64,000 nucleotides of DNA from Bacillota bacterium (lineage in GTDB: Bacteria; Bacillota_I; Bacilli_A; RFN20; CAG-826). How positions within the stretch are numbered: position 1 is the stretch's first letter; every line of letters starts with the position of its first letter. Location of the stretch: positions 54,378-118,377 of the forward strand of contig JAEWMX010000006.1 in the NCBI GenBank assembly GCA_023393065.1, given 5' to 3'. Below the pieces are notes generated by a model. That model saw only the letters and a list, made by a program, of their open reading frames with translations. It was not told the DNA's origin and made no database searches. A program made the translations under genes and the position numbers. Below are positions 210 through 35,260 of the stretch, piece by piece.

Positions 210-1025
210 TTATACTCCGGAACGGCTGATTGCGCCGTCCATCATCGCCTGCCGCATATCTTCGGTCAAAGAAGAAAGCCCATCATTGATAAGTCCGAGC
301 AATTCGCTGTTACCGTCAGCAACGGCGACGGAAACGCTTAACTCGTTTTCATCGATGCCGGTGAAACCCACTTCAAATTCGACGATAGCTAGAGTCGGAT
401 TAGCGTTGACGATTGCTCTCGCCACCGGATACTCGGCGATCATGGCGTCGCTATCACCAGCAATTACAGATAAGGCTGCGGTATTAAAAGTATCGGTGCC
501 CGGTTGGTGGATGACACCGACGATTTGGTCGATGACCGAATCTTGAATCGTACCAAGCTGGGTAACGACTTTATAACCGCTTAAGTCTTGAATCGAGTCG
601 ATGCCGACTAAATCGGAATCGCCGCGGACGACGGCGACGAGATCACTTACATAGTAAGCGCCGCTAAAATCGACGCTGACATCGCGTTCCTCGGTATAAC
701 TCATGCCAGCGATAATGGCGTTGATATCGCCGGTTTGAAGGGCGGGGATGAGCGCGCCCCACTCAATTTTCTTGATGACGACTTCTTTGCCCATCTCCAA
801 AGCGAGATGCTTGGCGATTTGAATGTCGTAGCCATCCGCGTATTGGCCGGCGATGCCATCGATGGGCAGGGAGTAGGCTGATGCCGTGGTCGCCGTCCAG
901 TTAAACGGCGCGTAGTCGCATTCGAGCCCGACAATAAGTTTTTGGTTATCAAAATTATTGCCGACGCAACTTGCGACCAGTAGCGATGATGCGAGTAGAA
1001 CGCTTTGTCCTAGTCTAGTCTTCAT
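210..1025 (-). CDS. amino acid ABC transporter substrate-binding lipoprotein (family 3 SBP)
   Basis: 271 aa. Signal peptide with lipobox LLVASC. SBP_bac_3-like pattern (GIDSIQDLSGYKV, AIIAGMSYTEER). RBS GGAGGG upstream at ~1031-1038 on the minus strand. Confidence 0.85.
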   Translation of the reverse strand: MKTRLGQSVLLASSLLVASCVGNNFDNQKLIVGLECDYAPFNWTATTASAYSLPIDGIAGQYADGYDIQIAKHLALEMGKEVVIKKIEWGALIPALQTGDINAIIAGMSYTEERDVSVDFSGAYYVSDLVAVVRGDSDLVGIDSIQDLSGYKVVTQLGTIQDSVIDQIVGVIHQPGTDTFNTAALSVIAGDSDAMIAEYPVARAIVNANPTLAIVEFEVGFTGIDENELSVSVAVADGNSELLGLINDGLSSLTEDMRQAMMDGAISRSGV

Positions 1026-1076: not shown

Positions 1077-1429
1077 TTAAAGAAGAGATTCTGACATCAA
1101 TAGCGCCTCTGCCAGGTAGTTGGCAGGAGTCCATAGAAGTATTCCTTCATAGACCAACCACTCACTCCGCCGAATGAATGTTTCGGCGACTTTGCCTTTC
1201 CTTGCTTTCTTCGAATGCCTTCTCGAGCAAGTACTAATCGCAGTCGCGCCTCTATTAATTGATGGCGTTATATTAACACCGCATTTTTCGAATTAAAAGA
1301 ATTATTTTTATGATGCCGAAAAATATTTTTTTGAATGTGCAAAAACGCTCTTTAGCAAGCACCTTCAATGATTTATTTGTTTGTTTATTTTATACTGACA
1401 TCACAAGTATATTTCAGGAGGAAATAATC

Positions 1430-9136: not shown

Positions 9137-9198
9137 GGAAAGTGTCATCTCGGGCTCGCTGGTGAGCAAGCGACTGCTCGCCGAGCGCAAATACGCGT

Positions 9199-9227
9199 TT
9201 GCATTGAAAGTCCCCAACATTTATAAT
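9199..9227 (+). promoter_or_regulatory. sigma-A-like promoter TTGCAT-17-TATAAT for the mocA-xdh operon
   Basis: Hexamers and 17-nt spacer read from the sequence. Leaves a ~85-nt leader. Confidence 0.4.
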
Positions 9228-9318: not shown

Positions 9319-9897
9319 ATGATCCACGGGATTATTCTGGCGGCCGGTTACTCAAGCCGAGCTGAGACGAATAAGATGCTATTGATGCACAAGGGTAAGT
9401 TTTTACTATCCCACGCGATTGATGGCATGCTTCCCTTCGTCGACGAAGTCATTGTCGTCACCGGACATTATCACAAAGAAATTTCCGAAGTCTTAAATAC
9501 TTACCAAAAAGTTACCTGTGTCTATAACCCGCGCTACGCTGAAGGAATGTTCACCTCCGTGCAAGCCGGTGTGACGAAGACAAAAGGTGATTTTTTTATT
9601 CTGCCCGGCGATTGTCCGTTTGTCACCGCCGACACCTATCAAAAAATGCTGTCTGGCACGAAGGATTTACGCGTTCCGAGCTTTCATAATCACACTGGCC
9701 ATCCCCTTTTTCTTAAGCAATCTCTTAAGGATGAATTGCTTAACGAACCAGCGGAGTCAAACCTCAAAGTATTTCGAAATCGCCACGATTATGAAATAAT
9801 CAAGACAGAGGATTCTCAAATCTTGATGGACATCGACACACCATCTGACTATCAAGCTTTAGATAAATTAGGAAAGGAAACCAAACATGGAAGCTAA
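9319..9897 (+). CDS. mocA: molybdenum cofactor cytidylyltransferase (MocA/MobA-like nucleotidyltransferase)
   Basis: MIHGIILAAGYSSRAETNKMLL matches the MobA-like NTP-transferase N-terminus. Sits directly upstream of xanthine-dehydrogenase-family subunits, as ygfJ does in E. coli. RBS AAGGAG upstream. Confidence 0.75.
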   Translation: MIHGIILAAGYSSRAETNKMLLMHKGKFLLSHAIDGMLPFVDEVIVVTGHYHKEISEVLNTYQKVTCVYNPRYAEGMFTSVQAGVTKTKGDFFILPGDCPFVTADTYQKMLSGTKDLRVPSFHNHTGHPLFLKQSLKDELLNEPAESNLKVFRNRHDYEIIKTEDSQILMDIDTPSDYQALDKLGKETKHGS

Positions 9898-10684
9898 TCG
9901 CTATTTACGACCTGCGACCTTGGAAGAAGCATATCAACTGTTGCTTCAAGACCCCAAAAACATTTTGCTCGGCGGAGGCCTTTGGCTTAAAAAGTCCACC
10001 CCTTCAGCCAACGCTCTCGTCGATTTGAGTGCCCTCGGGCTCGACGCAATTAAAGATCTCGGTGATCGCCTTGAAATTGGGGCGATGGTCACTCTTCGCG
10101 ACTTTGAGTTAAGTCCTCTTATTAAAGAGATATGCGGCGGAGTCTTAACTGAAGCGACCAGCCAAATTATGGGCGTCGCTTTTCGCAACGGCGCGACGAT
10201 CGGTGGTTCGGTTGCCGGAAGATTCCCTTTCTCAGATATAATCACGCCGTTACTTGCCCTTGACGCGCAACTAGTTTTTTATCCCCACAAAGAAATGAGC
10301 CTCGCTGATTTTTTGGCTCTTAAAGGACGCCTTAGCGATATCCTCACTCATGTTGTTATCAAAAAAAGCAAAGGGCGCTCGTTTTTTAAGAAAGTCAAGA
10401 CGACAGCCCTTGATTTTGCCGTAATCAATGTTGCCATCGCATCTATTGATGGCAATTATCGCGTAGCGATAGGCAGCCGTCCTTCGGTTGCGTCTTTAGC
10501 GTTAAAGACCATGGATTCAGTCAACAATAAAAAGAAATTATCTAAGGAGGAAGTTCTTAAAGCCGCCGAGATAGCGTCTGAAGAACTATCCTATGCATCG
10601 ACTAACGCCGCGAGTGCCGAATATCGAAAAGCACTCGTCAAAGCCTATGTCAAGCGCGGTCTTGAGGAGGTCAGCAAAGAATGA
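9887..10684 (+). CDS. molybdenum hydroxylase FAD-binding subunit (XdhB/CoxM family), triad 1
   Basis: 265 aa. FAD-binding molybdopterin-dehydrogenase pattern (ILLGGGLWL, AFRNGATIGGSVAG). Confidence 0.85.
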   Translation: MEANRYLRPATLEEAYQLLLQDPKNILLGGGLWLKKSTPSANALVDLSALGLDAIKDLGDRLEIGAMVTLRDFELSPLIKEICGGVLTEATSQIMGVAFRNGATIGGSVAGRFPFSDIITPLLALDAQLVFYPHKEMSLADFLALKGRLSDILTHVVIKKSKGRSFFKKVKTTALDFAVINVAIASIDGNYRVAIGSRPSVASLALKTMDSVNNKKKLSKEEVLKAAEIASEELSYASTNAASAEYRKALVKAYVKRGLEEVSKE

Positions 10685-11133
10685 GAGTCAATTTTGTACT
10701 AAACGGACGAAACGTTATTTTTGATATCGCTCCCGGCGAATATCTGGCTGACACTTTGCGCGCCAATCACATTTTATCCGTCAAAAAAGCTTGTGATGAA
10801 TCCGCTTGCGGCGCCTGTACCGTCTTAGTTGACGGCCGCCCAATTCTATCTTGCTCTTATTTGTCCGCTCGCGTCGAAGGACGGAGCGTGACGACCGTCG
10901 AAACCATTCAAGACGAAGTCAATCAAATCAGCGACTTCTTTTCAGATGAAGGCGCTGATCAATGCGGCTTTTGCAACACCGGTCTCGCCTTGACGATTTA
11001 TGCTTTGCAAAAGGAAATGCCAAATGCCAGCGATGACGAGATACGACACTTTGTGGCCGGCAATCTCTGCCGCTGCTCGGGCTATCAGGCGCAATTCCTC
11101 GCCATCAAACACTATTTGGAGGCCCATAGATGA
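10681..11133 (+). CDS. molybdenum hydroxylase 2Fe-2S iron-sulfur subunit (XdhC/CoxS family), triad 1
   Basis: 150 aa. Two [2Fe-2S] cysteine clusters (CDESACGACTV; CGFCNTG...CRCSGY). Confidence 0.9.
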   Translation: MRVNFVLNGRNVIFDIAPGEYLADTLRANHILSVKKACDESACGACTVLVDGRPILSCSYLSARVEGRSVTTVETIQDEVNQISDFFSDEGADQCGFCNTGLALTIYALQKEMPNASDDEIRHFVAGNLCRCSGYQAQFLAIKHYLEAHR

Positions 11134-13433
11134 AAACGGTAAATCACAAGACTCCTTCCGTCGACGGCAAGGGCATCATGATGGGGCGGGCCGCCTTTAC
11201 CGATGACTTCGCCGAACCCAATTCCCTAATCGTCAAAATGCTACGGAGCCCCCACGCTTTTGCTCGCATCAAAAACATTGACACTTCCAAAGCTCGTGCC
11301 CTTCCCGGCGTCGAGATTGTCTTGACCCACCACGACGTCCCTCGCAAGTCGTTTACGAGGGCCGGACAAGGCTATCCCGAACCATCTCCACACGATAAGT
11401 TCATCTTAGATGAATATGTTCGCTATGTCGGCGATGAAGTCGCTTGCGTCGCGGCCATAAACGAAAGCGTTGCCGACCAAGCTTTGAAACTAATCGAAGT
11501 TGAATACGAGGTCCTTGAACCTGTGCTCGACTTTGAAAAAGCCTTTGAACACCAGAGCGTCATTCACCCCGAAGAAGGAATTTGCGAGATGTTTCCCATC
11601 GGTTTTGAACCGAAGAAAAATGTCGCTGCTTCTTATCACATGCATGTAGGAGATGTCGATGCTGTCATGGCTAAATGCGATGTGGTTGTCGAAGAAACTT
11701 ATTACACTCAAGCTCAAGCTCATGCGATGCTTGAACCGCATTCGACAAATGCCCGTTTGGATTATCATAATCGCCTCGTTATCTACTCTTCGACGCAAAC
11801 GCCTTATCACGTGCGTCGCATCTTGTCACAAACCCTTGATTTACCAATCAGCAAAATTCGCTTGATTAAGCCGCGTGTCGGCGGTGGATTCGGTGGCAAA
11901 CAGGCCCTGCATGGCGAGTTCTTTGTCTCTCTAGTGACTTTAAGAACCAAAAAACCATCCAAGATGGTGTATTCGCGACAAGAAGTATTTGAGTCCTCAT
12001 ACACTCGTCACCCGATGCGCATCACCATGCGTCTGGGAGCTATGAAAGACGGAACGATACGAGCGATCGACTGCTATAGTTTGTCCGATACCGGAGCTTA
12101 TGGCGAACACGCTTTAACCGTCTTTATGATTACCGGATCAAAAGTCTTGCCTTTATATAATAAAGTCGATGCTGTCCGCTTCGGCGGCCGCGTCGTCTAC
12201 ACCAACCACGTATCCGCTGGCGCTTATCGCGGTTACGGCGCGATTCAAGGTAATTTCGCCCTTGAATCAGTCATTGATGTCCTGGCGAAGAAGCTCAACA
12301 TGGATCCTTTGGAATTGAGACGCAAAAACATGATGGAAGAAGGCGAGACGAGCCCAATTTTTGAAATCATGGGCGAAGGCACCGAAGGCACGGCCATGAA
12401 TATGGATACGTGCAAACTCCGCTATTGTCTCGATCGCGGCGCCGAACTGATAGGGTGGAAAGACAAATATCCATTTGTTCGAGTCGGCCCCCACAAAGTC
12501 CGCTCGGTCGGCATGGCCATTGCTATGCAAGGTAGCGGCATTCCCTACATCGATATGGCAGCCGCCACTATCAAACTAAATGATGATGGCTTTTATAACC
12601 TGACCGTCGGGGCGACCGATATCGGTCAAGGCAGCGATACGATACTCACGCAAATTGCCGCTGAAACCCTGATGACAACCATGGATAAAGTCGTGATTTA
12701 CTCATCTGATACCGACTTGACGCCGTTTGATGTCGGTGCCTACGCATCTAGTACGACATATGTTTCTGGCAATGCCGTGCTTAAGGCCGCGAAGAGCATG
12801 AAGACCATGCTGATTGAAGAGGCGGCCCATTATCTGAAAGTCTCCGTAGATGAAGTGACATTCGATGGCGAAAAGTTCGTCGCCAAAGATAAGATCATCA
12901 CTTTATCGGATATGGCTAATAAACTCTACTACAACGAAAATCAACACCAACTGACAGCGACCGAAAGTTATGTCGGTCACAAGTCGCCGCCGCCTTTTAT
13001 GGCCGGTTTTGTCGAAATCGAAATGGATACTGAAACTTATGAGTACAAAATACTTCATTATGTCAGCGTCGTCGATTGCGGCACGACAATTAATCCGATG
13101 CTCGCCCGCGGTCAAGTCGAAGGCGGCATCGTCCAAGGACTGGGCATGGCTTGCTTTGAAGAAGTCAAATACAGCAATCGCGGAAAGCTTAACAGCAACA
13201 GCTTCTTGTATTACAAGATTCCGACGATGCTCGACATCGATAAGTTAACTACCGAGTTTGCGGAAAGCTATGAGGAAAGCGGTCCTTATGGGGCTAAGTC
13301 AGTCGGTGAAATCGGAATTGACACGCCGCCGGCAGCCATTGCCAACGCGGTCGCCAATGCCGTCAACATTCGCATTAATAAATTACCAATCACTCCTGAA
13401 AAGATTTTTCAGGGGGCAAATCAAGAAAAATAA
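11130..13433 (+). CDS. molybdenum hydroxylase molybdopterin-binding large subunit (xanthine dehydrogenase family), triad 1
   Basis: 767 aa. Aldehyde oxidase/xanthine dehydrogenase a/b-hammerhead and MoCo-binding domain pattern (GGGFGGK, GQGSDT, EIG). Confidence 0.9.
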   Translation: MKTVNHKTPSVDGKGIMMGRAAFTDDFAEPNSLIVKMLRSPHAFARIKNIDTSKARALPGVEIVLTHHDVPRKSFTRAGQGYPEPSPHDKFILDEYVRYVGDEVACVAAINESVADQALKLIEVEYEVLEPVLDFEKAFEHQSVIHPEEGICEMFPIGFEPKKNVAASYHMHVGDVDAVMAKCDVVVEETYYTQAQAHAMLEPHSTNARLDYHNRLVIYSSTQTPYHVRRILSQTLDLPISKIRLIKPRVGGGFGGKQALHGEFFVSLVTLRTKKPSKMVYSRQEVFESSYTRHPMRITMRLGAMKDGTIRAIDCYSLSDTGAYGEHALTVFMITGSKVLPLYNKVDAVRFGGRVVYTNHVSAGAYRGYGAIQGNFALESVIDVLAKKLNMDPLELRRKNMMEEGETSPIFEIMGEGTEGTAMNMDTCKLRYCLDRGAELIGWKDKYPFVRVGPHKVRSVGMAIAMQGSGIPYIDMAAATIKLNDDGFYNLTVGATDIGQGSDTILTQIAAETLMTTMDKVVIYSSDTDLTPFDVGAYASSTTYVSGNAVLKAAKSMKTMLIEEAAHYLKVSVDEVTFDGEKFVAKDKIITLSDMANKLYYNENQHQLTATESYVGHKSPPPFMAGFVEIEMDTETYEYKILHYVSVVDCGTTINPMLARGQVEGGIVQGLGMACFEEVKYSNRGKLNSNSFLYYKIPTMLDIDKLTTEFAESYEESGPYGAKSVGEIGIDTPPAAIANAVANAVNIRINKLPITPEKIFQGANQEK

Positions 13434-13445
13434 AGGAGTCTTGTT

Positions 13446-14138
13446 ATGAATAACAAAAAAAGTGTCTCAAACTCACTACTAGCCATTGTCTTTTTTGGAG
13501 CCGCTTGGGGCTTGCTAGAAGCCACGATGGGCTACCTCCTTCACTGGTTACCCGGCATGTGGTCGGGTCTGGTGATGTTTCCAATTGGGTCAGCTCTGAT
13601 GTATTGGGCCTATCAAAACACCGGACGTAGGAGCGCCATTCTCTATGTCGGTTTGCTAGCTGCTAGCATCAAGGCCATTAACTTCGCATTCCCAATTCAT
13701 TGGGAAGGATGGATGAGAGTGTATACGCCGATGATTTCGATCGTCTTAGAATCATTGACGGTTTTTGCCGTCAGTTACATCTTTGAGAAGAAAGCCTCGC
13801 CTATCAGACAGATTTTCATTCACCTCGGGGCGATGGTCCTAGCCATTGTTTCTTGGCGCCTTCTCTTCTTAGGCAATCAAGCCATTCAGTCGCTGATTAG
13901 CGGGAATCTCGCCAACCAACTTAGTTCTTTTGGAGCGGCGGCCAGCTTCGTTTTTGTTAATGGTGGCTATGAGTTGCTCGTCTTCGCCATCATTTACGGT
14001 ATTTATCGCCTCGTCCAATTCCTAATCTTGACGTTTAATAAGACAAATGTAAAAGCTCCGAATTGGCTGATGCCCGTTCTTTCGCCTCTAACTTTCGTCT
14101 TCGCTGTCTTGGCAGTTATTTTGCCAAAGCTTTTATAA
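13446..14138 (+). CDS. uncharacterised integral membrane protein (about six predicted TM helices, possibly ECF S-component-like)
   Basis: 230 aa, hydrophobic throughout. No recognisable catalytic motif. Embedded in the Mo-hydroxylase cluster. Confidence 0.55.
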   Translation: MNNKKSVSNSLLAIVFFGAAWGLLEATMGYLLHWLPGMWSGLVMFPIGSALMYWAYQNTGRRSAILYVGLLAASIKAINFAFPIHWEGWMRVYTPMISIVLESLTVFAVSYIFEKKASPIRQIFIHLGAMVLAIVSWRLLFLGNQAIQSLISGNLANQLSSFGAAASFVFVNGGYELLVFAIIYGIYRLVQFLILTFNKTNVKAPNWLMPVLSPLTFVFAVLAVILPKLL

Positions 14139-14192
14139 GGAAGATAGAAATCGCCACCATGTCAACAATCATCGTTCAAAGAAAGGCTCTCC

Positions 14193-14678
14193 GTGGTTAA
14201 GATAATCAGCGGGAAAGTCGATTCTGGAAAAACGACGGAGATGATTCGGCGCTACGAAGCCACGCGTTCAGGCGATGGCTTCGTAGCCCTTAAAAAAATG
14301 AAGGGGAACGATATTTACGGATATTGCATTCGACGCCTTGGCAACGATCGTTCGCTCATGTGGATGATTCATCAAAAACACTATCAGGACGACTTTAAGA
14401 ACCATAGTAAGTTCGGTCCTTATTACCTCAATCTCGACGTTTTGCATCTGATGGAATCCGATGTCGATGAGTTTATCGCAAAAAACATCGCCCCCATCTT
14501 CCTCGACGAAATTGGAATCCTCGAACTTAATGGCGGAGGCTATCACAACATTTTGAAGAAACTATTAGCAAGCGGTCTCAATCTCGTCATCGCCGTCCGC
14601 GAAGACCTCGTCAAACCCATCGCGAATTACTTCGCTATCAAAGACTATGAACTGATACAAGTTCAAAGAGAGGAGTAG
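14193..14678 (+). CDS. small P-loop NTPase (MobB-like; candidate molybdenum hydroxylase maturation accessory protein)
   Basis: GTG start. Walker A at residues 6-14 (ISGKVDSGKTT). 161 aa. Context similar to yqeC/mobB-type accessory genes. Family assignment is tentative. Confidence 0.5.
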   Translation: MVKIISGKVDSGKTTEMIRRYEATRSGDGFVALKKMKGNDIYGYCIRRLGNDRSLMWMIHQKHYQDDFKNHSKFGPYYLNLDVLHLMESDVDEFIAKNIAPIFLDEIGILELNGGGYHNILKKLLASGLNLVIAVREDLVKPIANYFAIKDYELIQVQREE

Positions 14679-14682
14679 AACC

Positions 14683-15990
14683 ATGTACGATTATGCAATC
14701 ATGAATGGCAAGCTCTACATCAACGGTCATTGGGAAAAGCACAACCTCTATATCGCAAAGAGCAAAATCGCCTTGATCAGCGATGACTTTTTGGATGCAT
14801 CGGAAGTGGTGGACGCCGACGGACTAGAAGTCTTGCCGGGCATCGTCGACCCGCATGTTCATTTCGAACTCGACTTAGGCAAATACAAATCCGTCGATGA
14901 TTTTTATCATGGCACGGTAGCAGCCGCCTACGGCGGAGTAACCTCCATCGTCGACTTTCTCGATCCGGTGAGCAATGCCGAAGAACTCCAAGTCGCCTTT
15001 GATAAGCGCATGGCGTTAGCTAAAAAATCCGTCGTCGATTTTCGCCTCCACGCCTGTTTAAAAAACCCGACGGGCGATCTCGAAGAATTCGTCAAAAAAA
15101 TGAAGAGCCTCGACATGCACACGCTCAAGATTTTTACGACTTACTCCGACTCTGGCCGCCGGACTTATGAAAAAGATATCATCAAGCTGCTCGAGCTGTC
15201 TGACAAGTATAAATTTTTGCTCCTCGTCCATGCCGAAAACGATGATTTGATCGTTCTAAAAAAAGATTTTACGTACCAGGATTTGCCGATTAGCCGTTCC
15301 TCGGAAGCGGAAAGAACCGAAGCCCTGCACCTAGCGAAACTCGTCCGGCATCACGGCGGGAAACTATATATGGTTCATCTAAGTGACGGCCACACGCTAG
15401 AAGCCCTTATTGAAAACTATAGCGATATTTTGAATAAGCATTTCTTTGTCGAAAGCTGCCCGCAGTATTTTACTTTTACCAACGACGACTTGCAGAGAGA
15501 AGATGGCTACTTGTATTCGTTTGCCCCACCTCTTCGGGATTTCGTCTCGCGTAAAATGCTTTTCGTCAATCAGAAACACATCGATACGATCGGTACCGAC
15601 CACTGCGCTTTCAACGTTGCCGACAAAAAAGGCAAGATGCTTTTTGAAATGCCATTAGGCATTGGAGGCATCGAGCACTCGTTTACGATTATGCGTCATC
15701 ATCTCGGTGATGCCGTCATTAATAAGATGACCGCCAATGTAGCCCGCATCCAAGGTCTCGAAGGCAAAGGCGAAATCAAAGTCGGAAACGATGCCGATCT
15801 GCTCATTTTCAAACCCGAACCACGCAGCCTGATTCTTGACAAGCACGGCCGCGCCGATTACTCCTTGTACATCGGTCAGCCCGCGCACGGTCAAGTTATC
15901 TCAACGATGATTCGCGGTCATTTTGTGATTCAAAACCGCGTCTATCAAGGCGGACAAGGACAGTGGATCAAAGGGCGGGATATCGCATGA
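14683..15990 (+). CDS. cyclic amidohydrolase of the hydantoinase/dihydropyrimidinase family (HyuA-like)
   Basis: 435 aa. N-terminal metal-binding DPHVHF motif and the family's GxxDxH pattern near the C-terminus. RBS AGAGGAG upstream. Confidence 0.8.
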   Translation: MYDYAIMNGKLYINGHWEKHNLYIAKSKIALISDDFLDASEVVDADGLEVLPGIVDPHVHFELDLGKYKSVDDFYHGTVAAAYGGVTSIVDFLDPVSNAEELQVAFDKRMALAKKSVVDFRLHACLKNPTGDLEEFVKKMKSLDMHTLKIFTTYSDSGRRTYEKDIIKLLELSDKYKFLLLVHAENDDLIVLKKDFTYQDLPISRSSEAERTEALHLAKLVRHHGGKLYMVHLSDGHTLEALIENYSDILNKHFFVESCPQYFTFTNDDLQREDGYLYSFAPPLRDFVSRKMLFVNQKHIDTIGTDHCAFNVADKKGKMLFEMPLGIGGIEHSFTIMRHHLGDAVINKMTANVARIQGLEGKGEIKVGNDADLLIFKPEPRSLILDKHGRADYSLYIGQPAHGQVISTMIRGHFVIQNRVYQGGQGQWIKGRDIA

Positions 15991-17291
15991 AAAAAGCCAT
16001 AATTAACATTAAAATTTATGATTTTGCGAAGTTTTCGAATGATAGCTTTGTTATCTTTGACCAGGCAATTTTGCATGTTGGCGCAATGTCTGACTTCGTC
16101 GATGAAGGTTTTGAAATCATCGATGGCCGGGGCGCATTGCTCATGCCCGGACTCGTATGTGCTCACACCCACATCTACTCGAAATTTGCTCGTGGCCTAG
16201 CCCTTCCTTTTAATCCTAAAAATTTCCAAGAAATTCTTGACCAGATGTGGTGGAAACTCGACCGCCACATCGATAATGAAACATCATACTACAGCGGCAT
16301 TGTCGCCGCCGCCGATTTTCTTCGCGACGGCGTGACGACAATTATCGATCACCACGCCAGCGGCCAAGAAATTAGCGGTTCGCTCGCCTCGCTTAAAAAA
16401 GCCGTTTGCGACGAAGCTTCGATGCGGGCTCTGTTCGCCTTCGAAGTCAGCGATCGTTTCAATATCGAAGAAGCGATTGAAGAAAATATTTCGTTTATCA
16501 GAAATTTCAAGACGCCACATACCGCCGGTCTCTTCGGTCTTCACGCCTCGATGAGCCTTTCGGAGGATACTCTCAATCAAGTTGGCGCTCGCCTTAAGGG
16601 GGCCCCTATTCACATTCATGTCGCTGAAAGCGAGATGGATGAAGAAGATGCTATTAACAAATATGGCGAACGAGTCGTAGAACGTCTTGATCGCCATGGT
16701 TTGATCAACGAAGATAGCCTTTTGATTCACTGCGTCCACGTCAATGACAAAGAGCTTGATATCATCAAAAGGCGTCAGGCCGCAATCGTCGTCAATGTCA
16801 CCTCTAATATGAACAACGCGGTCGGACTTCCAAACATTAATAAATTCCGCGAGAAGGAAATTCCCGTCATGATTGGAAACGACGGCCTTTCCAGCGGTAT
16901 CGCTAATGAGTATATAAATGTCTTGTATAGTGCACATCTGCTTAATAAGAAGCCGACAGCCTTTGATCTCGGCAATCTCTTAGAGATGATTAATCAAGGT
17001 TACGAATATGTCTCTCGCCATCTCGGCGTCAAACTCGGTCGCATCGAAGCTGGTTACGAAGCTGATTTGCTTCTCATGCCGTATGTTCCTCCGACCGCCC
17101 TTGACAAAAGCAACGCCCTCGGCCATCTTTTCTACGGCTTGATGCACGCCTTTAAACCGAGTGATGTTTTTGTCGCCGGCAATCATTTGCTTAAAAATTA
17201 CGAACTTGCAAATAAGAAATTAGTGTTGGAGTACGAAAAAAGCCAAGGAGTTGCCGATCGACTCTGGAATAGAATCAAAGGAGAAAAATGA
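15987..17291 (+). CDS. ssnA: SsnA-type amidohydrolase (chlorohydrolase/aminohydrolase family)
   Basis: ATG at 15987 overlaps the upstream stop (ATGA). ~434 aa. HTHIYS metal-binding motif. Conserved membership in the ygeW/xdh neighbourhood. Confidence 0.75.
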   Translation: MKKAIINIKIYDFAKFSNDSFVIFDQAILHVGAMSDFVDEGFEIIDGRGALLMPGLVCAHTHIYSKFARGLALPFNPKNFQEILDQMWWKLDRHIDNETSYYSGIVAAADFLRDGVTTIIDHHASGQEISGSLASLKKAVCDEASMRALFAFEVSDRFNIEEAIEENISFIRNFKTPHTAGLFGLHASMSLSEDTLNQVGARLKGAPIHIHVAESEMDEEDAINKYGERVVERLDRHGLINEDSLLIHCVHVNDKELDIIKRRQAAIVVNVTSNMNNAVGLPNINKFREKEIPVMIGNDGLSSGIANEYINVLYSAHLLNKKPTAFDLGNLLEMINQGYEYVSRHLGVKLGRIEAGYEADLLLMPYVPPTALDKSNALGHLFYGLMHAFKPSDVFVAGNHLLKNYELANKKLVLEYEKSQGVADRLWNRIKGEK

Positions 17292-18379
17292 TGGATTTAT
17301 CGACCAAGTTTGATGGATTAGTTCTCGCCAATCCGCTCATGCCCGCTGCCGGTCCTCTCGTCGGCGATACCGAACGCCTCGTTTTCATGAAAGACGCCGG
17401 CTGCGGCGCCATTGTCACTAAGACAATTTCCACCAAAGACGCCCATATTCCTCGCCCCTGCATTTACGGCGACCGCGAATATATCATGAACAGCGAATTG
17501 TGGAGCGAGTACAACAAAGAAAAGTGGATTGAAGAGTTCTTACCGGAATTCGTCGCTCAAAATGATGGCCGCCCCCTTATCGTAAGCGTCGGCTACACGA
17601 AGGAAGACATGGAAGTTCTCATCCCTCTGCTTGACCGTTTCGCCGATGCTTTTGAAGTATCGACTCACTATGTGGGCACAGATCATTCTGTCATCGCCGA
17701 AACCGTTCGTGCGATTCGCAAGCACACAAACAAGCCCCTCTATATGAAAATCAGCCCTCATATTCCTGATCCTTCAGGATTTGCCAAGGCCATCAAGGCC
17801 GCCGGAGCCAACGGCGTCGTCGCCGTCAACTCTTTGGGTCCGACGATGAAGATAGATATTAAAAAGCGTCGAATCATCTACGGAAACGAAAAAGGTTTCG
17901 TGTGGACGAGCGGACCAGTCATTAAAAATCTCGCATTCGCGACCGTCTATACGATCAAACGAGCCGAGCCATCCTTGACGGTCATCGGCGTCGGCGGCAT
18001 CGCCACCGCGGATGATGTCATCGAATTTTTGCTAGCCGGCGCGAGCGGCGTGCAAATGCTTTCGGCCGCCCTTTTAAAAGGCAAACAACTATACGCCAAG
18101 ATTATCGAAGACCTGCCCAAGGCTCTTGAAAGAAATGGCTTCTCCTCAGTTCAAGAAGTTATTGACACGCAACTAACTAACAAAGTTAGATATGAAGGCA
18201 ATACTCCATATCTCATTCCTGAAAAATGCATTCGCTGCATGTTATGCGTGAAGATTTGTCCATATTTTGCCATCGAGATGAAAGATGTCATCACCTTTGA
18301 TTCGACGAAGTGCTTTCAGTGCGGTCTTTGCCCTGTGAAGTGCCCGACTGGCGCGATTGTCATGGAAGAAAAGGAGTAA
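17288..18379 (+). CDS. dihydroorotate/dihydropyrimidine dehydrogenase-like flavoenzyme with C-terminal 2x[4Fe-4S] ferredoxin domain (PreA-like)
   Basis: 363 aa. DHOD-like TIM-barrel N-terminus. C-terminal CIRCMLCVKICP and CFQCGLCPVKCP motifs. Confidence 0.75.
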   Translation: MMDLSTKFDGLVLANPLMPAAGPLVGDTERLVFMKDAGCGAIVTKTISTKDAHIPRPCIYGDREYIMNSELWSEYNKEKWIEEFLPEFVAQNDGRPLIVSVGYTKEDMEVLIPLLDRFADAFEVSTHYVGTDHSVIAETVRAIRKHTNKPLYMKISPHIPDPSGFAKAIKAAGANGVVAVNSLGPTMKIDIKKRRIIYGNEKGFVWTSGPVIKNLAFATVYTIKRAEPSLTVIGVGGIATADDVIEFLLAGASGVQMLSAALLKGKQLYAKIIEDLPKALERNGFSSVQEVIDTQLTNKVRYEGNTPYLIPEKCIRCMLCVKICPYFAIEMKDVITFDSTKCFQCGLCPVKCPTGAIVMEEKE

Positions 18380-18382
18380 CGA

Positions 18383-20476
18383 ATGTTCGATCCGAAGAAA
18401 TCAACACCGAAAGTCGACCACGAAGAAAAGTGCTCCGGCCAAGCCCAATATGTCTCGGACATCGTTTTAGACGACATGCTCTATGCTAAGACGGTGCGCT
18501 CCACGATTGCTCGAGGATATATTCGCGCGATTGGCATTCCCACCCTTCCTCGCGGTTATCACATCGTCGACCACCGCGATGTCGTCAAAGAAAATTATGT
18601 CAAAATGATTTTTAATGACTGGCCCGTTTTTACCGTCGACCGCGTCAACTACATCGGCGAACCGATCATGCTCGTGGTCGGTCCCGACAAGCGCGTCATC
18701 GACGAAATCATCTCGGAAATTAAAATTGATTACGAAGAGGAGACGCCGGTTTTTGATTATTCAAAAAGCGTCGTTCACAAATCTTTCACCAAAGGTGATT
18801 TGAAAGCGACGAGCAAAGATGCCGTTCGCGTCATCAAAGAAACTTTTAATACTGGATATCAAGAGCAAGCGTACATTGAACCGCAAGGCATGCTCGCCTA
18901 TTTAGAAGAGGGCGGCAAAGTTACTTTAGTCGGTTCGATGCAGTGTCCCTATTATATAAAAAACGCCGTCATCAACACTCTGGGATATCCCGAGGATAAG
19001 GTGCGCGTCATTCAACCCGCCGTCGGAGGCGCTTTTGGCGGCAAAGAAGAATTTCCTTCGACGACCGCCTGCCAACTCGCGACGGCTGTCGTCAAAATCA
19101 AGAAGCCGATTAAGATGATTTTCGAACGCGAAGAGGATATGCTCGTCACGACGAAGCGCCATCCTTCGACGACGACCCTCGAAGTTCTCATCGATAAGAA
19201 CAATAAAGTGCTGGGGATTAAAGCCCATGTCAGCTTAGACGCGGGGGCCTACATCGGTTTAAGCGGTGTCGTCTTGTCGCGTTCGATGCTCGCTGTCACC
19301 AATGCCTATACCATCAATAATCTCGATGTCAGCGGTGATGTCTATATTACGAACACCGTTCCGACCGGAGCCTTTCGCGGCTTTGGTTCGCCGCAGATGA
19401 TCTTTGCCATCGAAATGTTTATGAATCACCTCGCCAAAGATTTAGGCCTTGATCCATTCGAGTTTCGTCTTAATCACTTAGTAAAACAAGGTGATCTAAC
19501 CTCGACATCCGGAATCTTCCGCGACCCGATCATCATGAAAGATATGATTGCTAAAGCCGCTGAGATTTCCGACTATCACAACAAGACTAAAGAATATGCC
19601 AAACCAGGCGTTTACAAAGGAATCGGCATGAGTTGGTTCTTACACGGGTGCGGTTTTACCGGCGATGGTGAGAGCACGCACATTAAGGCCAAAGTCCGAC
19701 TCGTCAAAGACGAGCAAGACTATGTTCGTTTGCATATCGCCGCCGTCGATATGGGGCAAGGCGCTAAAACCTCGCTTAAGCGCATCGTCGCCATGACCTT
19801 AGGTATCGACAACGAAAAAGTAATCTTTGATTATCCCGACACCGATTTGGCACCTGATTCGGGGCCGTCCGTCGCATCGCGCACGGTGATGATTGTCGGC
19901 GGTCTATTAGCCCGAGCCGCTCAAAATCTCAAAGACAACTGGAAGAAAGGCGAACGCCAGGAAATCATCGAGCACTACAAACAACCGGATTACATCGAAT
20001 GGGATGAAAGCAAACTGCGCGGAGACGCTTATCCGGCTTATTCGTGGGGTGTCAATGTCGTCGAAGTTGAAGTCTCTCCGATTTCTTACGAAGTCGAGCT
20101 CAAAGGTATTTGGAGCGTCTACGATGTCGGCAAAGCCATCGATGAAAGAATGCTCGTCGGACAAGCCGACGGAGGCATTACCCAAGGCGTAGCCTATGGC
20201 TATCTAGAAGTTATGCGCCACGAAAACGGCAAACTGAAACAGAAGAATTTAACTGATTACATCATACCGACATCGATGGATATGCCGCCGATGGAAACCG
20301 TGATAATGGATAATCCGTTTGCCTATGGTCCGTATGGCGCGAAAGGCGCTGGCGAACTGACCTTAGTCGGAGGGGCGCCGGCTGTCGCTTTAGCGATTGA
20401 AAATGCCATTAAACGCCGCATCAATCGCATTCCCGCCACCCCTGAACACATCATGGAGTTATTAAACAATGAATAA
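18383..20476 (+). CDS. molybdenum hydroxylase molybdopterin-binding large subunit, triad 2
   Basis: 697 aa. Paralogous to 11130..13433 (GGAFGGK, MGQGAKT, GELT motifs). Confidence 0.9.
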   Translation: MFDPKKSTPKVDHEEKCSGQAQYVSDIVLDDMLYAKTVRSTIARGYIRAIGIPTLPRGYHIVDHRDVVKENYVKMIFNDWPVFTVDRVNYIGEPIMLVVGPDKRVIDEIISEIKIDYEEETPVFDYSKSVVHKSFTKGDLKATSKDAVRVIKETFNTGYQEQAYIEPQGMLAYLEEGGKVTLVGSMQCPYYIKNAVINTLGYPEDKVRVIQPAVGGAFGGKEEFPSTTACQLATAVVKIKKPIKMIFEREEDMLVTTKRHPSTTTLEVLIDKNNKVLGIKAHVSLDAGAYIGLSGVVLSRSMLAVTNAYTINNLDVSGDVYITNTVPTGAFRGFGSPQMIFAIEMFMNHLAKDLGLDPFEFRLNHLVKQGDLTSTSGIFRDPIIMKDMIAKAAEISDYHNKTKEYAKPGVYKGIGMSWFLHGCGFTGDGESTHIKAKVRLVKDEQDYVRLHIAAVDMGQGAKTSLKRIVAMTLGIDNEKVIFDYPDTDLAPDSGPSVASRTVMIVGGLLARAAQNLKDNWKKGERQEIIEHYKQPDYIEWDESKLRGDAYPAYSWGVNVVEVEVSPISYEVELKGIWSVYDVGKAIDERMLVGQADGGITQGVAYGYLEVMRHENGKLKQKNLTDYIIPTSMDMPPMETVIMDNPFAYGPYGAKGAGELTLVGGAPAVALAIENAIKRRINRIPATPEHIMELLNNE

Positions 20477-21784: not shown

Positions 21785-21797
21785 AGAAGGTGTGATA

Positions 21798-23042
21798 ATG
21801 CATAAGTTCAAAGGTTATCGCTGCACATTATGCGGCAAGACTTATAGCCCTGATGAGGCGCTTTATACCTGTCCTTCTTGTGGCGAAAAAGGCATTTTGG
21901 ATGTCGAATACGATTATGAGAAATTAAAGAATACGATAACGCTTGATTACTTTAAAAATAATCGCGATTATTCGATGTGGCGCTACGCCCCGCTCATGAG
22001 CATGCCGGACGATCACATCAAGGAGATGCTCAGAATTGGCTGGACGCCACTATATAAATCAAAGCGCCTCGCCGAATATCTAGGTATCAAGGAGCTCTAC
22101 ATTAAAGATGAAGGTCTGAATCCCAGCGGTTCAACTAAAGACCGAGCCAGCGGCGTCGCCGTCTTAAAAGCCATCGAAGCGGGGGCGCAAACCATTTCCT
22201 GCTCATCGACAGGCAACGCTGCATCAAGCTGTGCATGCCAAGCCGCGCACATGGGCTTAAAGAGCGTTATTTTCGTGCCCAAAAGAGCGCCGATTGGCAA
22301 GTTGACGCAACTATCCATTTACGGAGCGACAGTCATCTGCGTCGACGGCGATTACAAAGACACGTATAACTTATCGCGTAAAGCGATTGAAACTTATCAT
22401 TGGTATAACCGCAATGCGGCGATTAACCCGCACATGGTCGAAGGCAAAAAAACCGTCGCTTTAGAAATTGCCGAGCAACTCGATTTCGCACCGACTGACT
22501 GGGTGGCGATTTCCGTGGGAGACGGCTGTAGCGTCGGTGGTGTTTACAAGGGTGTCTTCGATTTGTATCAATTAGGCCTCATCAAACGCATTCCCAAAAT
22601 TCTCGGAGTGCAGAGTTCAGGATGTGCGCCGTTCGTGACGGCGTTTGAAAATAACGAACCGCTTAAGGAAGCCGATGAAAACACTTTGGCCGACTCTATC
22701 GCCGTCGGCATTCCCCGCAACCCGAATAAAGGCTTAAATGCCATCAAAAAGAGCGGCGGGCACTTTATAAGTGTCAGCGATAAGCATATACTAGAGAGTA
22801 TGGCGCTTTTAGGGCGCCTGGAAGGCATCTTCGGAGAACCGGCTGGCGTGACTGCGCTAGCGGGCGTCGAAGAGGCTCTGCATAGAGGTGTAATCAGACC
22901 CGATGAGTCGGTGACATTCATTGTTACCGGCAACGGATTAAAAGACCCGACCAATGCGCAAAAAGCAATCAGTCCACCCATCCTTCTCAAGCCCGATATC
23001 GAGGCCCTAAACAAGTATTTAAAAGAAAAAGGAGTCAAATAA
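21798..23042 (+). CDS. fold-type II PLP-dependent enzyme, threonine-synthase-like, with N-terminal Cys4 zinc ribbon
   Basis: CTLCGK...CPSCGEKG zinc ribbon. PLP-lysine motif NPSGSTKDRAS plus SSTGNAASS, closely patterned on ThrC (NPTGSFKDRG...STGNTSAS). ATG 21798 chosen over GTG 21792, which lies inside the RBS AAGGTG. Confidence 0.75.
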   Translation: MHKFKGYRCTLCGKTYSPDEALYTCPSCGEKGILDVEYDYEKLKNTITLDYFKNNRDYSMWRYAPLMSMPDDHIKEMLRIGWTPLYKSKRLAEYLGIKELYIKDEGLNPSGSTKDRASGVAVLKAIEAGAQTISCSSTGNAASSCACQAAHMGLKSVIFVPKRAPIGKLTQLSIYGATVICVDGDYKDTYNLSRKAIETYHWYNRNAAINPHMVEGKKTVALEIAEQLDFAPTDWVAISVGDGCSVGGVYKGVFDLYQLGLIKRIPKILGVQSSGCAPFVTAFENNEPLKEADENTLADSIAVGIPRNPNKGLNAIKKSGGHFISVSDKHILESMALLGRLEGIFGEPAGVTALAGVEEALHRGVIRPDESVTFIVTGNGLKDPTNAQKAISPPILLKPDIEALNKYLKEKGVK

Positions 23043-30427: not shown

Positions 30428-31132
30428 ATGTTAGAAATCAAAAATGTCAGCAAATCATACGATAAGAAAAAGCTAGCCATCAATAATGTCACGATGACTC
30501 TTGAGCCAGGCGACCTGTATGGCTTTGTCGGCCCAAACGGCGCCGGCAAAACGACGCTTATCAAATCGATTGCCGGAATCATATCCTTTGACAGTGGTAC
30601 CATCACTTTTGATGGTCACACCATCGACAAAGAGCCAATCGCGTTTAAAAAGCAGCTCGCCTATATTCCCGATCACCCGGATTTATATGAGACTTTATCG
30701 GGCCGCCAATTCGTCGATTTTATCGCTGACGCGTTTGATGTCTCGCTCGAACGCCGCAATCAATTGATTGGCCAATATGCCGCCGAGTTTGAAATGCTCG
30801 ACGCCCTTGATAAGCCAATCTCCTCCTATTCACATGGTATGAAACAGAAGGCCGCTCTTATCGCCGCCCTCGTTCATGAGCCAAAACTTATTTTACTCGA
30901 TGAGCCATTTGTCGGTCTTGATCCTAAAGCCGCCTTTGCCCTTAAAAAGACATTTAAAGATATTACTGATTCCGGGACGATTATCCTCTTTTCCTCCCAT
31001 GTCCTCGAAGTCGTGGAAAAATTGTGTAACAAAATCGCCATCATCAAGCAAGGCGAAATCATCGCTGATGGAAAGACGCATGAAGTGCTAAAAGATCGTT
31101 CGCTCGAGAACTTCTTTATGGAGATTGCCTAG
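30428..31132 (+). CDS. ABC transporter ATP-binding protein
   Basis: Walker A GPNGAGKTT, signature YSHGMKQK, Walker B LILLDEPFVGLD. Confidence 0.85.
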   Translation: MLEIKNVSKSYDKKKLAINNVTMTLEPGDLYGFVGPNGAGKTTLIKSIAGIISFDSGTITFDGHTIDKEPIAFKKQLAYIPDHPDLYETLSGRQFVDFIADAFDVSLERRNQLIGQYAAEFEMLDALDKPISSYSHGMKQKAALIAALVHEPKLILLDEPFVGLDPKAAFALKKTFKDITDSGTIILFSSHVLEVVEKLCNKIAIIKQGEIIADGKTHEVLKDRSLENFFMEIA

Positions 31133-32702
31133 CGTGTTTTTGAAATTGCTTAGAATATTTCTTAAAGAAAATTTTGGCGCCCGTCGCCTTTTTGGCAGCA
31201 AAGCCGCCCAATCAAAAGGACGAAAGATAGCCCTGTCGTTTCTTTTCGTCTACTTATTCGCCAGCATTGGTTTTTCGACGGGCGCCATGTTTTATTTCTC
31301 GGGCCTCACTCGCGAATTGATGCTCTATGTCGCTTCTTATGCAACTGGCCTAGGTTTTTTGTTCGCGCTCCTTCAAGCTAGCGGCTTTCTCTTTCATTTT
31401 AAAGACTATGAAATAATCGGACCCCTTCCGATAAAACCCCTCTCCCTTCTTTTGGCTAAGCTGATGACGATGATGGTTTTTATCTATATCGTCTTGACGG
31501 CTTTGACGCTCCCCATCTTTATCGTCTATTACATATTCGTGCCTTTTGATATCCTCGGTTTTATCTTGTTGCTTCTTGGCTATTTCCTACTTCCCTTACC
31601 GGCGATTATCCTCGGATCTTTCTTGTCGTTGATTATCGCTCGAATTTCGAAGCACTTTGCAAAATCCAATCTCATCCAGACAATTCTCATGTTCGTCATC
31701 TTTCTAACCATCTTTGGCATCTCGTTAATCGGCGGCGCTTCTGGTGATCAAGGATCCATGATTCCGGTTTGGGTCATCGATGCCATCTCCGCTTTTTATT
31801 TGCCAAATGAATGGTATGCCTCTGCCGTCCACGAAAACAATCTGTTAAACTTTGTTTATTTATTGCTCAGTCACGCCTTGGTCTTCACCATATTTCTTCT
31901 CATAATTTCGAAGTTGAGCGTTAAGACGAATCAGAATCGAACCGCCAACAAGCAAGTCATCATCAAAAGCAACAAATTGCGGAAGACCCCAATTCTCACC
32001 GCTCTTATTAAAAAAGAGTGGCGGAAATTCGTCGGCACGCCCATCTACATCTTCAACTGCGGATTCGGTTTGATAATGTTGGTCATCATGGCGGTGGCGT
32101 CAGTCTTCTTGAAAGATGCGATTGCCGCCGAAGTCGGTTTCTTTTCACCCTTTATCTTGCTCATCGCCTATGGTTTTTGCGTCGTCACGGTGTATACACC
32201 GGCGATTAGCCTCTCGTTAGAGGGACGAAATTTTGGCTTGTTAAAAACCCTTCCGATTAAAGGCGAGACGATCATGAGCGCAAAGATTATCTTCAACTTG
32301 CTCTTGCTCCTTCCGGTGATAATCATCACCTTGCCCTTCGCATCGTACGGTCTCGGACTCGATATATGGACGGCGCTTTCGGGCTTTTTGGTCCTTGTTT
32401 CCTTTACCATACTAACCTCGATTTTCTTCGCTTGGCTCAATCTCTTTTTCCCGCGATTTGATTTCAAAACGGAAGCCGAAATTGTCAGGCAGAGCATGTC
32501 ATCATTTATCGCCGTCTTCGGCGGCATGGGTTTTATGGTTCTCGAGGGGGCGATGCTGGTCGGCATCATGTTCCTTCTATCCTCCCTCCACATCGCTTTC
32601 TCTTTGCTCGTTTTGGTGATTGTCAACGCTTTATTGTCTCTCGCAATCTATTGGCCGATGCACAAGAAAGCCGACAGGCGCTTGCAAAAGATGGAAGCTT
32701 AG
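31125..32702 (+). CDS. ABC transporter permease (large multi-TM, ABC-2/exporter type)
   Basis: 525 aa, ~12 hydrophobic segments. TTG start overlapping the ATPase stop. Confidence 0.7.
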   Translation: MPSVFLKLLRIFLKENFGARRLFGSKAAQSKGRKIALSFLFVYLFASIGFSTGAMFYFSGLTRELMLYVASYATGLGFLFALLQASGFLFHFKDYEIIGPLPIKPLSLLLAKLMTMMVFIYIVLTALTLPIFIVYYIFVPFDILGFILLLLGYFLLPLPAIILGSFLSLIIARISKHFAKSNLIQTILMFVIFLTIFGISLIGGASGDQGSMIPVWVIDAISAFYLPNEWYASAVHENNLLNFVYLLLSHALVFTIFLLIISKLSVKTNQNRTANKQVIIKSNKLRKTPILTALIKKEWRKFVGTPIYIFNCGFGLIMLVIMAVASVFLKDAIAAEVGFFSPFILLIAYGFCVVTVYTPAISLSLEGRNFGLLKTLPIKGETIMSAKIIFNLLLLLPVIIITLPFASYGLGLDIWTALSGFLVLVSFTILTSIFFAWLNLFFPRFDFKTEAEIVRQSMSSFIAVFGGMGFMVLEGAMLVGIMFLLSSLHIAFSLLVLVIVNALLSLAIYWPMHKKADRRLQKMEA

Positions 32703-32770
32703 CGATATTTGTTAATAAGAATTGTTTGTTTTTGATGTGCTAATATAAAATTAGAAAAAGAGGTGGATTT

Positions 32771-32902: not shown

Positions 32903-32944
32903 TTTTTTACACTTCCGAACCGGAGGTGGCACAAGGGGGAGCAA

Positions 32945-34696: not shown

Positions 34697-34697
34697 A

Positions 34698-35114: not shown

Positions 35115-35206
35115 AACTACCTCCTCTTTTATCTTGGCAACATCCAAATATATTACAAGTGTTTGCGCAAAACCACGAGACGGGCGCAGTAGTTATAAAC
35201 ATAATT

Positions 35207-35235: not shown

Positions 35236-35260
35236 TGAAAACGTAACGGAGGCTTTTTTA

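Follow-up and report, generated by a model that had tools for sequence, protein, structure and literature searches.

A reductive uric-acid/2,8-dioxopurine pathway has been described (bioRxiv 10.1101/2025.05.19.654654 and 10.1101/2025.04.24.650524), and the papers on it, together with a study of selenium-dependent molybdenum (Mo) hydroxylases (PMC2276186), mention the proteins YqeB, YqeC, and MocA. In cultured Izemoplasma-type isolates, transcriptomes revealed induction of the xanthine dehydrogenase cluster on organic nutrients or nucleic acids, and the induced cluster includes an 'NTPase' and a nucleotidyltransferase (zrk13) or a 'nucleoside-triphosphatase' (zrk29) (PMC8397711, PMC10470597). 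A comparative-genomics survey has listed 278 Mo-using bacteria without ModABC, Wtp, or Tup, as well as 305 bacteria with 'orphan' proteins of the xanthine oxidase (XO) or dimethyl sulfoxide (DMSO) reductase (DMSOR) families and no complete pathway for the molybdenum cofactor (Moco) (PMC6147048). Here we analyzed a 64,000-nt stretch of DNA from a Bacillota bacterium (assembly GCA_023393065.1, contig JAEWMX010000006.1, positions 54,378 to 118,377; hereafter the window), in which an operon that represents a variant of the above pathway contains two additional genes on the + strand. The first (13446-14138, ATG start, 230 codons) encodes a membrane protein with seven predicted transmembrane (TM) helices, here designated MEMB, and the second (14193-14678, GTG start, 161 codons) encodes a P-loop NTPase of the PF03266 family; both open reading frames (ORFs) lie where the original prediction had placed them. 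The three pathway and hydroxylase papers mention neither a THEP1-type NTPase nor MEMB, and no link of THEP1, PF03266, DUF2478, or MEMB to Mo enzymes was found among searchable papers. Based on genomic context and sequence, we moderately favor a joint interpretation in which MEMB is a putative transporter of molybdenum/tungsten (Mo/W) or a Moco precursor and the NTPase is a candidate cofactor maturation factor specific to XO-family enzymes.

The original prediction had described the product of the first gene as a polytopic protein with no recognizable motif, and this description stands: the window protein matched no Pfam family at E ≤ 0.1 and no NCBIfam model, and when 48 diverse members of its family were compared with Pfam, one marginal match to DUF7521 (E 0.0082) was the only result. 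Comparison of the MEMB profile with sequences in the PDB gave no true match either (a match to superoxide dismutase was spurious). Exhaustive profile searching identified 666 clusters at 50% identity with E ≤ 1e-3, including 497 with E ≤ 1e-10. MEMB thus belongs to a widespread and uncurated family without an earlier link to molybdenum in Pfam, NCBIfam, or searchable papers. An AlphaFold2 model built from a 19-sequence alignment contains seven helices, with a predicted local distance difference test score (pLDDT) of 87.9 and a predicted TM-score (pTM) of 0.84, and the alternation of K/R-rich and K/R-free loops indicates an N-in/C-out, 7-TM topology according to the positive-inside rule. The family signature, drawn from 164 members, comprises a motif in TM1 (G18-x2-W21-G22-x2-E25-A26-x2-G29-x2-L-H), F45-P46 in TM2; A72 and K76 in TM3; P83; N/T94-P95, I99, and E102 in TM4; W137-R138 in TM5; and F168 in TM6. 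Four of the conserved positions are charged residues inside predicted helices (E25, K76, E102, and R138). No Cys or Met column is strongly conserved, and the sole conserved His column is H33 (91%), which is K or Q in some members.

The genomic context of this family was examined in about 180 related loci, with census gene labels assigned by BLAST and hidden Markov model (HMM) matching to a small reference set. A word-indexed search retrieved 25 MEMB and 21 NTPase homologues, all named ones being from metagenome-assembled genomes of Bacilli or Acholeplasmatales. The MEMB gene is also present in complete genomes, including CP134495.1, NZ_CP168077.1, and those of Xianfuyuplasma coldseepsis zrk13 and Hujiaoplasma nucleasis zrk29. 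For close relatives, one genome per GTDB species was used (80 loci), and genes were mapped by tblastn. XO-family genes were located within 6 kb of the MEMB gene in 79 of these 80 species loci, and the MEMB gene was directly 3' of the gene for the Mo subunit wherever the upstream flank was covered. The single clear exception was locus L028 (7033-8630), where a close MEMB member (E 6.6e-63 to the profile) immediately follows pdxS (SOR_SNZ) and no Mo-related gene is present within 8 kb. More distant members retain Mo-related neighbors in other operons. In three loci from spore-forming Firmicutes (L090, L096, and L180), the order is Mo subunit, FAD subunit, FeS subunit, MEMB, MocA, and NTPase, with no SsnA or hydantoinase genes; the MEMB candidate in L180 (213 aa) was assigned by position and size alone. 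L091 contains MEMB followed by the NTPase; here and in L095, the two ORFs overlap or are nearly adjacent. We also observed modules composed of accessory genes without enzyme genes, namely a MocA-like gene followed by MEMB (L092), MEMB-XdhC (L073), stand-alone MEMB-NTPase pairs (L094 and L167), and MocA-MEMB-NTPase (L171).

A metagenome scan seeded with a separate and distant MEMB clade provided 80 further loci. In 43 of them MEMB is directly upstream of a DMSOR-family catalytic subunit gene, which is followed by DmsB- and DmsC-like genes; 22 are XO-family clusters; in 8 loci MEMB is located beside a gene fusing a DMSOR module and NifS and an EgtD-like methyltransferase gene, which is the type of metallopterin ergothioneine synthase (MES; architecture from PMC9516567); and the remaining 7, mostly short contigs, have no identified partner. 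At 70% identity, these correspond to at least 14 (Dms), at least 12 (XO), and at least 4 (MES) separate clusters. The DMSO reductase subunits are genuine DmsA/YnfE proteins (TIGR02166, 916 and 889 bits; cut-off, 777.7), the MEMB and dmsA/ynfE genes are often 4 nt apart or overlapping, and a MobA-like guanylyltransferase gene is frequent on the opposite strand. Therefore, MEMB genes occur with metallopterin enzymes from two superfamilies that are not related to each other, in three or more unrelated metabolic settings, and they are paired with the matching nucleotidyltransferase: MocA-like for enzymes using molybdopterin cytosine dinucleotide (MCD) and MobA-like for those using bis-molybdopterin guanine dinucleotide (bis-MGD), the MobA-like gene being the one found with DmsA/YnfE and MES. 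Its presence beside DmsA/YnfE and MES and in accessory-only modules implies that MEMB tracks Mo/W-pterin enzymes generally and not purines. Overall, homologues occur overwhelmingly together with genes for Mo enzymes and Moco tailoring.

Two additional observations were made in these distant loci. The MEMB protein of the MES-type loci (L105, 2559-8257; L107, L108, and L132) is not mentioned in PMC9516567. A short MEMB form of ~149 aa, covering about the first 110 query residues (likely TM1-TM4), was detected in L156 (1396-4131), L144, L149, L158, L160, L161, L164, and L173, where it is in frame with the next dmsA/ynfE-like gene and separated from it by one stop codon.

The second protein matched PF03266 (NTPase_1, THEP1/NTPCR) with 36.6 bits (gathering score, 23.9), residues 4-160 aligning with positions 3-158 of the 168-position model, and also showed a sub-threshold match to DUF2478 in Pfam. 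The PDB sequences best matched by a profile of 16 diverse members were Aquifex THEP1 (1ye8, E 2.6e-7) and human NTPCR (2i3b), and a profile search recovered 397 homologues, with PF03266 in all of the 120 that were listed. The N-terminal Walker A motif noted in the original prediction is intact (GKVDSGKT) and is accompanied by a Walker B motif (D105-E106): G7, K13, D105, and E106 are invariant among the 16 diverse members, and G12 and T14 each reach at least 90% conservation. The subfamily also has its own conserved G-D-G-F and K34 motifs. We conclude that this is a divergent THEP1/NTPCR-type protein with intact catalytic motifs, which is predicted to hydrolyze NTP. Its suggested resemblance to MobB could be retained at the generic P-loop level only, as Pfam and NCBIfam gave no match to MobB (PF03205) at E ≤ 0.1 and profile searching of the PDB returned none of its chains at E ≤ 1. 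A YqeC-type identity, also raised in the original prediction, was abandoned: the NTPase does not match TIGR03172, which YqeC itself does match, and BLASTP with Escherichia coli YqeC gave E = 15. We also considered whether the C-terminal half of the DVU_1551 MocA-fusion model of NCBIfam could be a 'Rosetta stone' for NTPase_1; the NTPase had no match to that model.

The distribution of the NTPase is narrower than that of MEMB. When loci with sufficient sequence on the downstream side are counted, its gene was found in 97 of 98 XO-family/MocA contexts and in none of 27 DMSO-reductase contexts, and it is thus specific to the former; it also occurs in XO clusters without recognizable purine-pathway genes. 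Five context look-ups were started from NTPase homologues alone, and four of them showed a membrane-type gene just upstream, which was confirmed as MEMB by HMM in L094, L095, and L096 (E 1e-54 to 1e-56; directly adjacent in two of the three) and assigned by position in L180. The fifth, from cultured Vallitalea longa SH1V18 (BRLB01000007.1; L179, 9136-12634), revealed an operon of xdhC, the NTPase gene, yqeC, mocA, and a gene for the C-terminal domain of YqeB, lying opposite XdhD- and YgfK-like genes. V. longa YqeC (160 bits against a cut-off of 73), MocA, and YqeB are all above curated NCBIfam cut-offs, and YqeB is split in this organism into separate XdhC-like and TIGR03309 genes. The content of this operon places the NTPase among Mo-hydroxylase maturation genes, and its coexistence with a true YqeC indicates that it is no substitute for YqeC. 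In addition, no MEMB homologue is present within 10 kb of the V. longa NTPase gene, showing that the NTPase and MEMB are not obligate partners.

The original prediction had stated that no XdhC/YqeB-type chaperone is visible in the window, and tblastn with three XdhC queries from relatives confirmed this, giving nothing better than E = 0.036 in the 64 kb. It had not remarked that XdhC is normally encoded between the two genes. The gene order in close relatives is MocA, FAD subunit, 2Fe-2S subunit, Mo subunit, MEMB, [XdhC], NTPase, hydantoinase, SsnA, PreA-like protein, second Mo subunit, 2Fe-2S subunit, FAD subunit, and PALP enzyme. An xdhC gene of ~280 codons (PF02625 and PF13478) is located between the MEMB and NTPase genes in 60 loci (in L007, for example, at 10691-11533), the corresponding position in the window being the 54-nt spacer at 14139-14192 (+), which contains the NTPase ribosome-binding site AGAAAGG. 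At least 15 loci, comprising the clade of the window (≥80% identity) and a small number of other lineages, have MEMB and NTPase genes without xdhC between them. The spacer is conserved among close relatives and contains no recognizable xdhC remnant. The lack of XdhC in the window is therefore due to a lineage-specific deletion exactly between the MEMB and NTPase genes. In 41 of 61 loci, the XdhC tblastn match runs ~25 nt past the NTPase start, and this overlap of the xdhC 3' end with the NTPase start suggests translational coupling. XdhC of the relatives shows homology to E. coli YqeB over the N-terminal half of the latter (27% identity, E 5e-30) and does not have the selenium-associated TIGR03309 domain; across the window and ~95 loci (1.28 Mb, flanks only), YqeB matches span the XdhC-like half only, and YqeC is absent.

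Variation was also noticed at other positions of these clusters. In some XO-type clusters (L148, 7647-8375; L150, L163, and L170), a gene for a DUF364 + DUF4213 protein ('putative heavy-metal chelation') is located between MEMB and xdhC. A structure paper on this protein reportedly suggests synthesis of a flavin or pterin derivative, and the gene may be a further Moco-related accessory gene. In four Izemoplasma-type loci (L041, 12640-15633; L049, L053, and L060), a YgfK homologue of full length, with 41-42% identity to the E. coli protein, replaces the 363-aa PreA/DHODH-like flavoprotein, which looks like a swap of the dearomatizing reductase inside a conserved operon.

In the window, all genes of the operon are on the + strand. 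A promoter-like site (TTTGCA-18-TATAAT, 10/12 consensus matches) is present at 9198-9227, 5' of the first gene; it is a consensus match only, and the number of such sites in this region was not above that in shuffled sequences. The first gene (9319-9897) encodes a MocA-like molybdenum cofactor cytidylyltransferase (PF12804, E 1.4e-29), which scored 142.6 bits with the TIGR03310 MocA/YgfJ model, under the cut-off of 186.45. It is followed by a three-subunit XO-family Mo hydroxylase (9887-13433) with the FAD subunit (9887-10684) and the 2Fe-2S subunit (10681-11133), both labeled from homologues in loci L001 and L004 (PF00941 and PF00111/PF01799, respectively), and the Mo subunit (11130-13433; PF01315, PF02738, and PF20256), which had 658.6 bits with XdhA-like NCBIfam models, under the cut-off. 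The MEMB gene starts 12 nt past the stop of the Mo subunit gene, with AGGAG 9 nt upstream of its start, and the NTPase gene begins 54 nt after the MEMB gene and stops 4 nt before the hydantoinase-like gene. The GTG start of the NTPase is supported by the codon-level alignment with close relatives, in which ATG occupies this position. The operon continues with pathway genes (14683-20476) that were identified by Pfam and NCBIfam matches and are kept in this order in ~80 species; they encode the hydantoinase-like protein (14683-15990), SsnA (15963-17291), a PreA/DHODH-like Fe-S flavoprotein (17288-18379), and the second Mo subunit (18383-20476). No terminator-like signal in excess of shuffled sequences was detected between operon genes. 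The 12-, 54-, and 4-nt gaps and the lack of a terminator signal argue for a single operon, so the proposal that both genes are co-expressed with the Mo hydroxylase remains probable. The transcriptomes of cultured relatives noted above, in which the NTPase was induced along with its cluster (PMC8397711, PMC10470597), point the same way. It should be noted that the listed SsnA ORF begins at GTG 15963, giving a 28-nt overlap with the hydantoinase-like gene, and that the family alignment begins at residue 26; a start at ATG 15987 (MKKAII...) is likelier and would leave a 4-nt ATGA overlap.

Taken together, MEMB, the NTPase, and the MocA-like protein encoded at 9319 probably form a co-transcribed cofactor-provision kit of the Mo-hydroxylase operon. 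MEMB would most likely transport something common to all associated Mo/W-pterin enzymes. What its different settings have in common is the Mo/W-pterin cofactor together with the metal, which suggests that MEMB helps to supply Mo/W or a precursor of the cofactor. Molybdate/tungstate would be the likeliest cargo, although we propose it tentatively: oxyanion uptake genes are commonly found beside Mo/W enzyme genes, and K76 and R138 could bind an oxyanion. Molybdenum-bound molybdopterin (Mo-MPT) or a pterin precursor ranks second and is a possible but rather doubtful cargo. The NTPase would most likely spend NTP in a late XO-family-specific cofactor step, such as MCD formation, sulfuration hand-over, or insertion, probably acting together with XdhC and MocA. 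Since lineages that have lost XdhC retain the NTPase, the latter may be the more basic factor of the pair there. The maturation or insertion role that the original prediction had offered for it fits the context, including its presence in nearly all XO loci, the coupling to xdhC, and the V. longa operon.

Several observations weigh against this interpretation or qualify it. Foldseek comparison of two MEMB models with the PDB gave no significant match. The score of the NTPase with the THEP1-type NCBIfam model PRK13695 (34.6 bits) is far under the equivalog cut-off of 156, implying a separate subfamily. The context counts include related metagenome contigs, which are partly redundant and not fully independent. 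No Moco riboswitch was detected upstream of MEMB in 10 Dms-type loci, the window, and 4 XO-type loci, and no homologues of moa, moe, modAB, or yqeC were found in the 1.28 Mb mentioned above; Pfam annotation of window genes to 51.5 kb showed no Moco or Mo-transport genes, and neither molybdopterin nor mod genes were found in the supplements of the Izemoplasma and Hujiaoplasma papers. Finally, translational coupling of MEMB to catalytic subunit genes (Mo subunit and DmsA) would also fit a structural or assembly role.

The best surviving alternative, although we consider it unlikely, is that MEMB serves salvage by importing molybdopterin, Moco, or a pterin precursor. Such an importer, possibly similar to an S-component of energy-coupling factor (ECF) transporters, would let Moco-auxotrophic bacteria with reduced genomes run Mo enzymes. 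Once taken up, Mo-MPT would require no more than MocA or MobA to be ready for insertion, a minimal salvage route, and MEMB is persistently located beside genes for MocA- or MobA-like nucleotidyltransferases, which act on Mo-MPT. However, nucleotidyltransferase genes cluster with their enzymes anyway, and free Moco is labile. The lack of moa, moe, and modAB in the flanks would suit such an importer, as would the hosts, which are of the Izemoplasmatales/Acholeplasmatales type and have been described as intermediates in reductive genome evolution (PMC8397711), and the 305 bacteria with 'orphan' XO/DMSOR molybdoproteins already mentioned (PMC6147048). Structural comparison is ambiguous: for the first MEMB model, the only Foldseek matches with probability >0.8 were the ECF S-components RibU (3p5n; TM-scores 0.51/0.65, probability 0.85, E 1.9) and 5edl, but their E values of about 1-2 are not significant, and the second, equally confident model (pLDDT 89.1) did not reproduce them. 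Furthermore, comparison with ECF S-component families, as recommended in the original prediction, yielded no sequence match in Pfam for the window protein (E ≤ 0.1) or for the 48 diverse members (E ≤ 0.01), and the predicted 7-TM N-in/C-out topology is unlike that of canonical 6-TM S-components.

It is also conceivable, with a small probability, that MEMB and the NTPase constitute a two-component NTP-driven importer in which the NTPase is the energizing subunit. The two genes are neighbors in the 97 of 98 XO-context loci, a confirmed MEMB gene is upstream in three of the five NTPase-side contexts (L094-L096; that of L180 is a candidate by position), and the stand-alone pairs (L094 and L167) and near-adjacent or overlapping ORFs (L091 and L095) would fit such a system. 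On the other hand, the 27 DMSO-reductase-context loci have room for the NTPase and contain MEMB without it, the V. longa NTPase gene is part of a pure maturation operon with no MEMB homologue in the vicinity, and most loci have xdhC or mocA separating the two genes, with the NTPase coupled to xdhC. THEP1-type NTPases are not known to serve as transporter ATPases.

We regard as similarly improbable that MEMB is not a transporter but a membrane anchor or scaffold that tethers Mo-enzyme maturation or the enzyme itself. Its gene is 4-20 nt from, or overlaps, catalytic subunit genes (Mo subunit and DmsA), and MEMB has no detectable homology to any transporter family; yet the accessory-only modules (L073, L092, L094, L167, and L171) contain no enzyme to be anchored, DmsABC operons already have the DmsC anchor, no Cys or Met column is strongly conserved and H33 is the sole His column, and the four conserved charged residues in predicted TM helices suit ligand or ion handling. 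The weakest alternative, purine/urate capture by MEMB with a MobB/YqeC-type or general nucleotide-catabolic NTPase, is highly improbable: both genes are indeed inside a purine/urate catabolic operon and the Izemoplasma-type isolate papers list the NTPase under nucleotide metabolism, but MEMB also accompanies DmsA/YnfE, MES, and XO clusters without SsnA/hydantoinase genes (L090, L096, and L180), and the NTPase has no similarity to MobB or YqeC, coexists with YqeC, and occurs in XO clusters without recognizable purine-pathway genes. Of the two cargoes that the original prediction had envisaged for MEMB as a capture component, purine/urate is thus largely refuted by the context census (Dms, MES, and accessory-only contexts), whereas a cofactor precursor has gained support.

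Other features of the window were also noted. The first of two PALP enzymes (21792-23042) has a weak N-terminal match to a rubredoxin-like zinc ribbon (PF21349, 21.8 bits, sub-cut-off); three large consecutive ORFs of 525, 583, and 486 aa without Pfam match are present at 31125-36721; and two small AAA_33/KTI12-like kinase genes are arranged in tandem and overlap at 40814-41745. A lysine riboswitch (RF00168, 85.8 bits; gathering score, 30) at 1093-1262 (-) is located upstream of an SBP_bac_3 solute-binding protein gene at 210-1025 (-), suggesting that the latter encodes a lysine-regulated amino-acid uptake component.

What is new here is a proposed Mo-enzyme cofactor-supply module composed of two families without earlier ties to molybdenum, while accessory cofactor genes themselves are known. 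If MEMB is a Mo/W or Moco-precursor transporter, it would address the stated gap of Mo users without a known transporter or a full Moco pathway (PMC6147048), and if it imports Moco, molybdopterin, or a precursor and operates with MocA or MobA, the cofactor source of 'orphan molybdoprotein' bacteria, possibly including Izemoplasma-type ones, would be explained. This most far-reaching version, in which MEMB is an importer for molybdopterin, Moco, or a precursor, is a speculative one that we consider rather unlikely to hold; in a slightly less radical version, MEMB would represent a new non-ABC (ATP-binding cassette) class of molybdate/tungstate permease covering the 278 bacteria. Should the NTPase prove to act in XO-family maturation, it would be a missing component of the MocA/XdhC (and YqeB/YqeC) scheme, and a first biological role for the THEP1/NTPCR family would be obtained. 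Engineering of the anaerobic urate-degrading 2,8-dioxopurine pathway into probiotics is under way, and active hydroxylases may need both helpers in heterologous expression.

Comparison with known systems places the two proteins as follows. Aquifex THEP1 (aq_1292, 1ye8) and human NTPCR (2i3b) resemble the NTPase in size (~160-180 aa), Walker A (GxxxxGK[ST]), and Walker B (hhhhDE(I/V)G), but we found no description of an XO-family/MocA/XdhC neighborhood for them. MobB, too, is a small P-loop protein whose gene neighbors that of a Moco nucleotidyltransferase, and both may work by one principle, with an NTPase as the adaptor in the final cofactor steps; however, MobB is the GTP-binding partner of MobA in bis-MGD synthesis, whereas the NTPase accompanies MocA/XdhC and XO-family enzymes and is absent from all 27 Dms contexts. 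The YqeB/YqeC/MocA set described for selenium-dependent Mo hydroxylases (Haft & Self 2008, PMC2276186) is of a similar kind, its maturation genes likewise being embedded in the operon of this purine/urate cluster, although the NTPase is unrelated to YqeC and the window and ~95 loci have no YqeC. With regard to MEMB, ModABC, TupABC, and WtpABC might have in it a functional equivalent supplying Mo/W to Mo/W enzymes, but it is not an ABC transporter: no binding protein or ABC ATPase is associated with it, it has no sequence similarity to these systems and no Pfam/NCBIfam match to known molybdate/tungstate transporters, and no ModA/ModB homologue is present in the ~95 loci. ECF S-components (RibU, 3p5n; 5edl) have six helices versus the seven predicted in MEMB, and MEMB matches no Pfam S-component family; they are likewise small all-helical membrane proteins encoded with the pathway that uses the putative cargo. 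HupE/UreJ and HypB/UreG have no homology to MEMB or the NTPase, and the metal/cofactor served here, in a role that we propose from context, would be Mo/W-pterin; nevertheless, they provide an analogous architecture, in which the operon of a metalloenzyme includes genes for a small NTPase and a small polytopic membrane protein that serve this enzyme.

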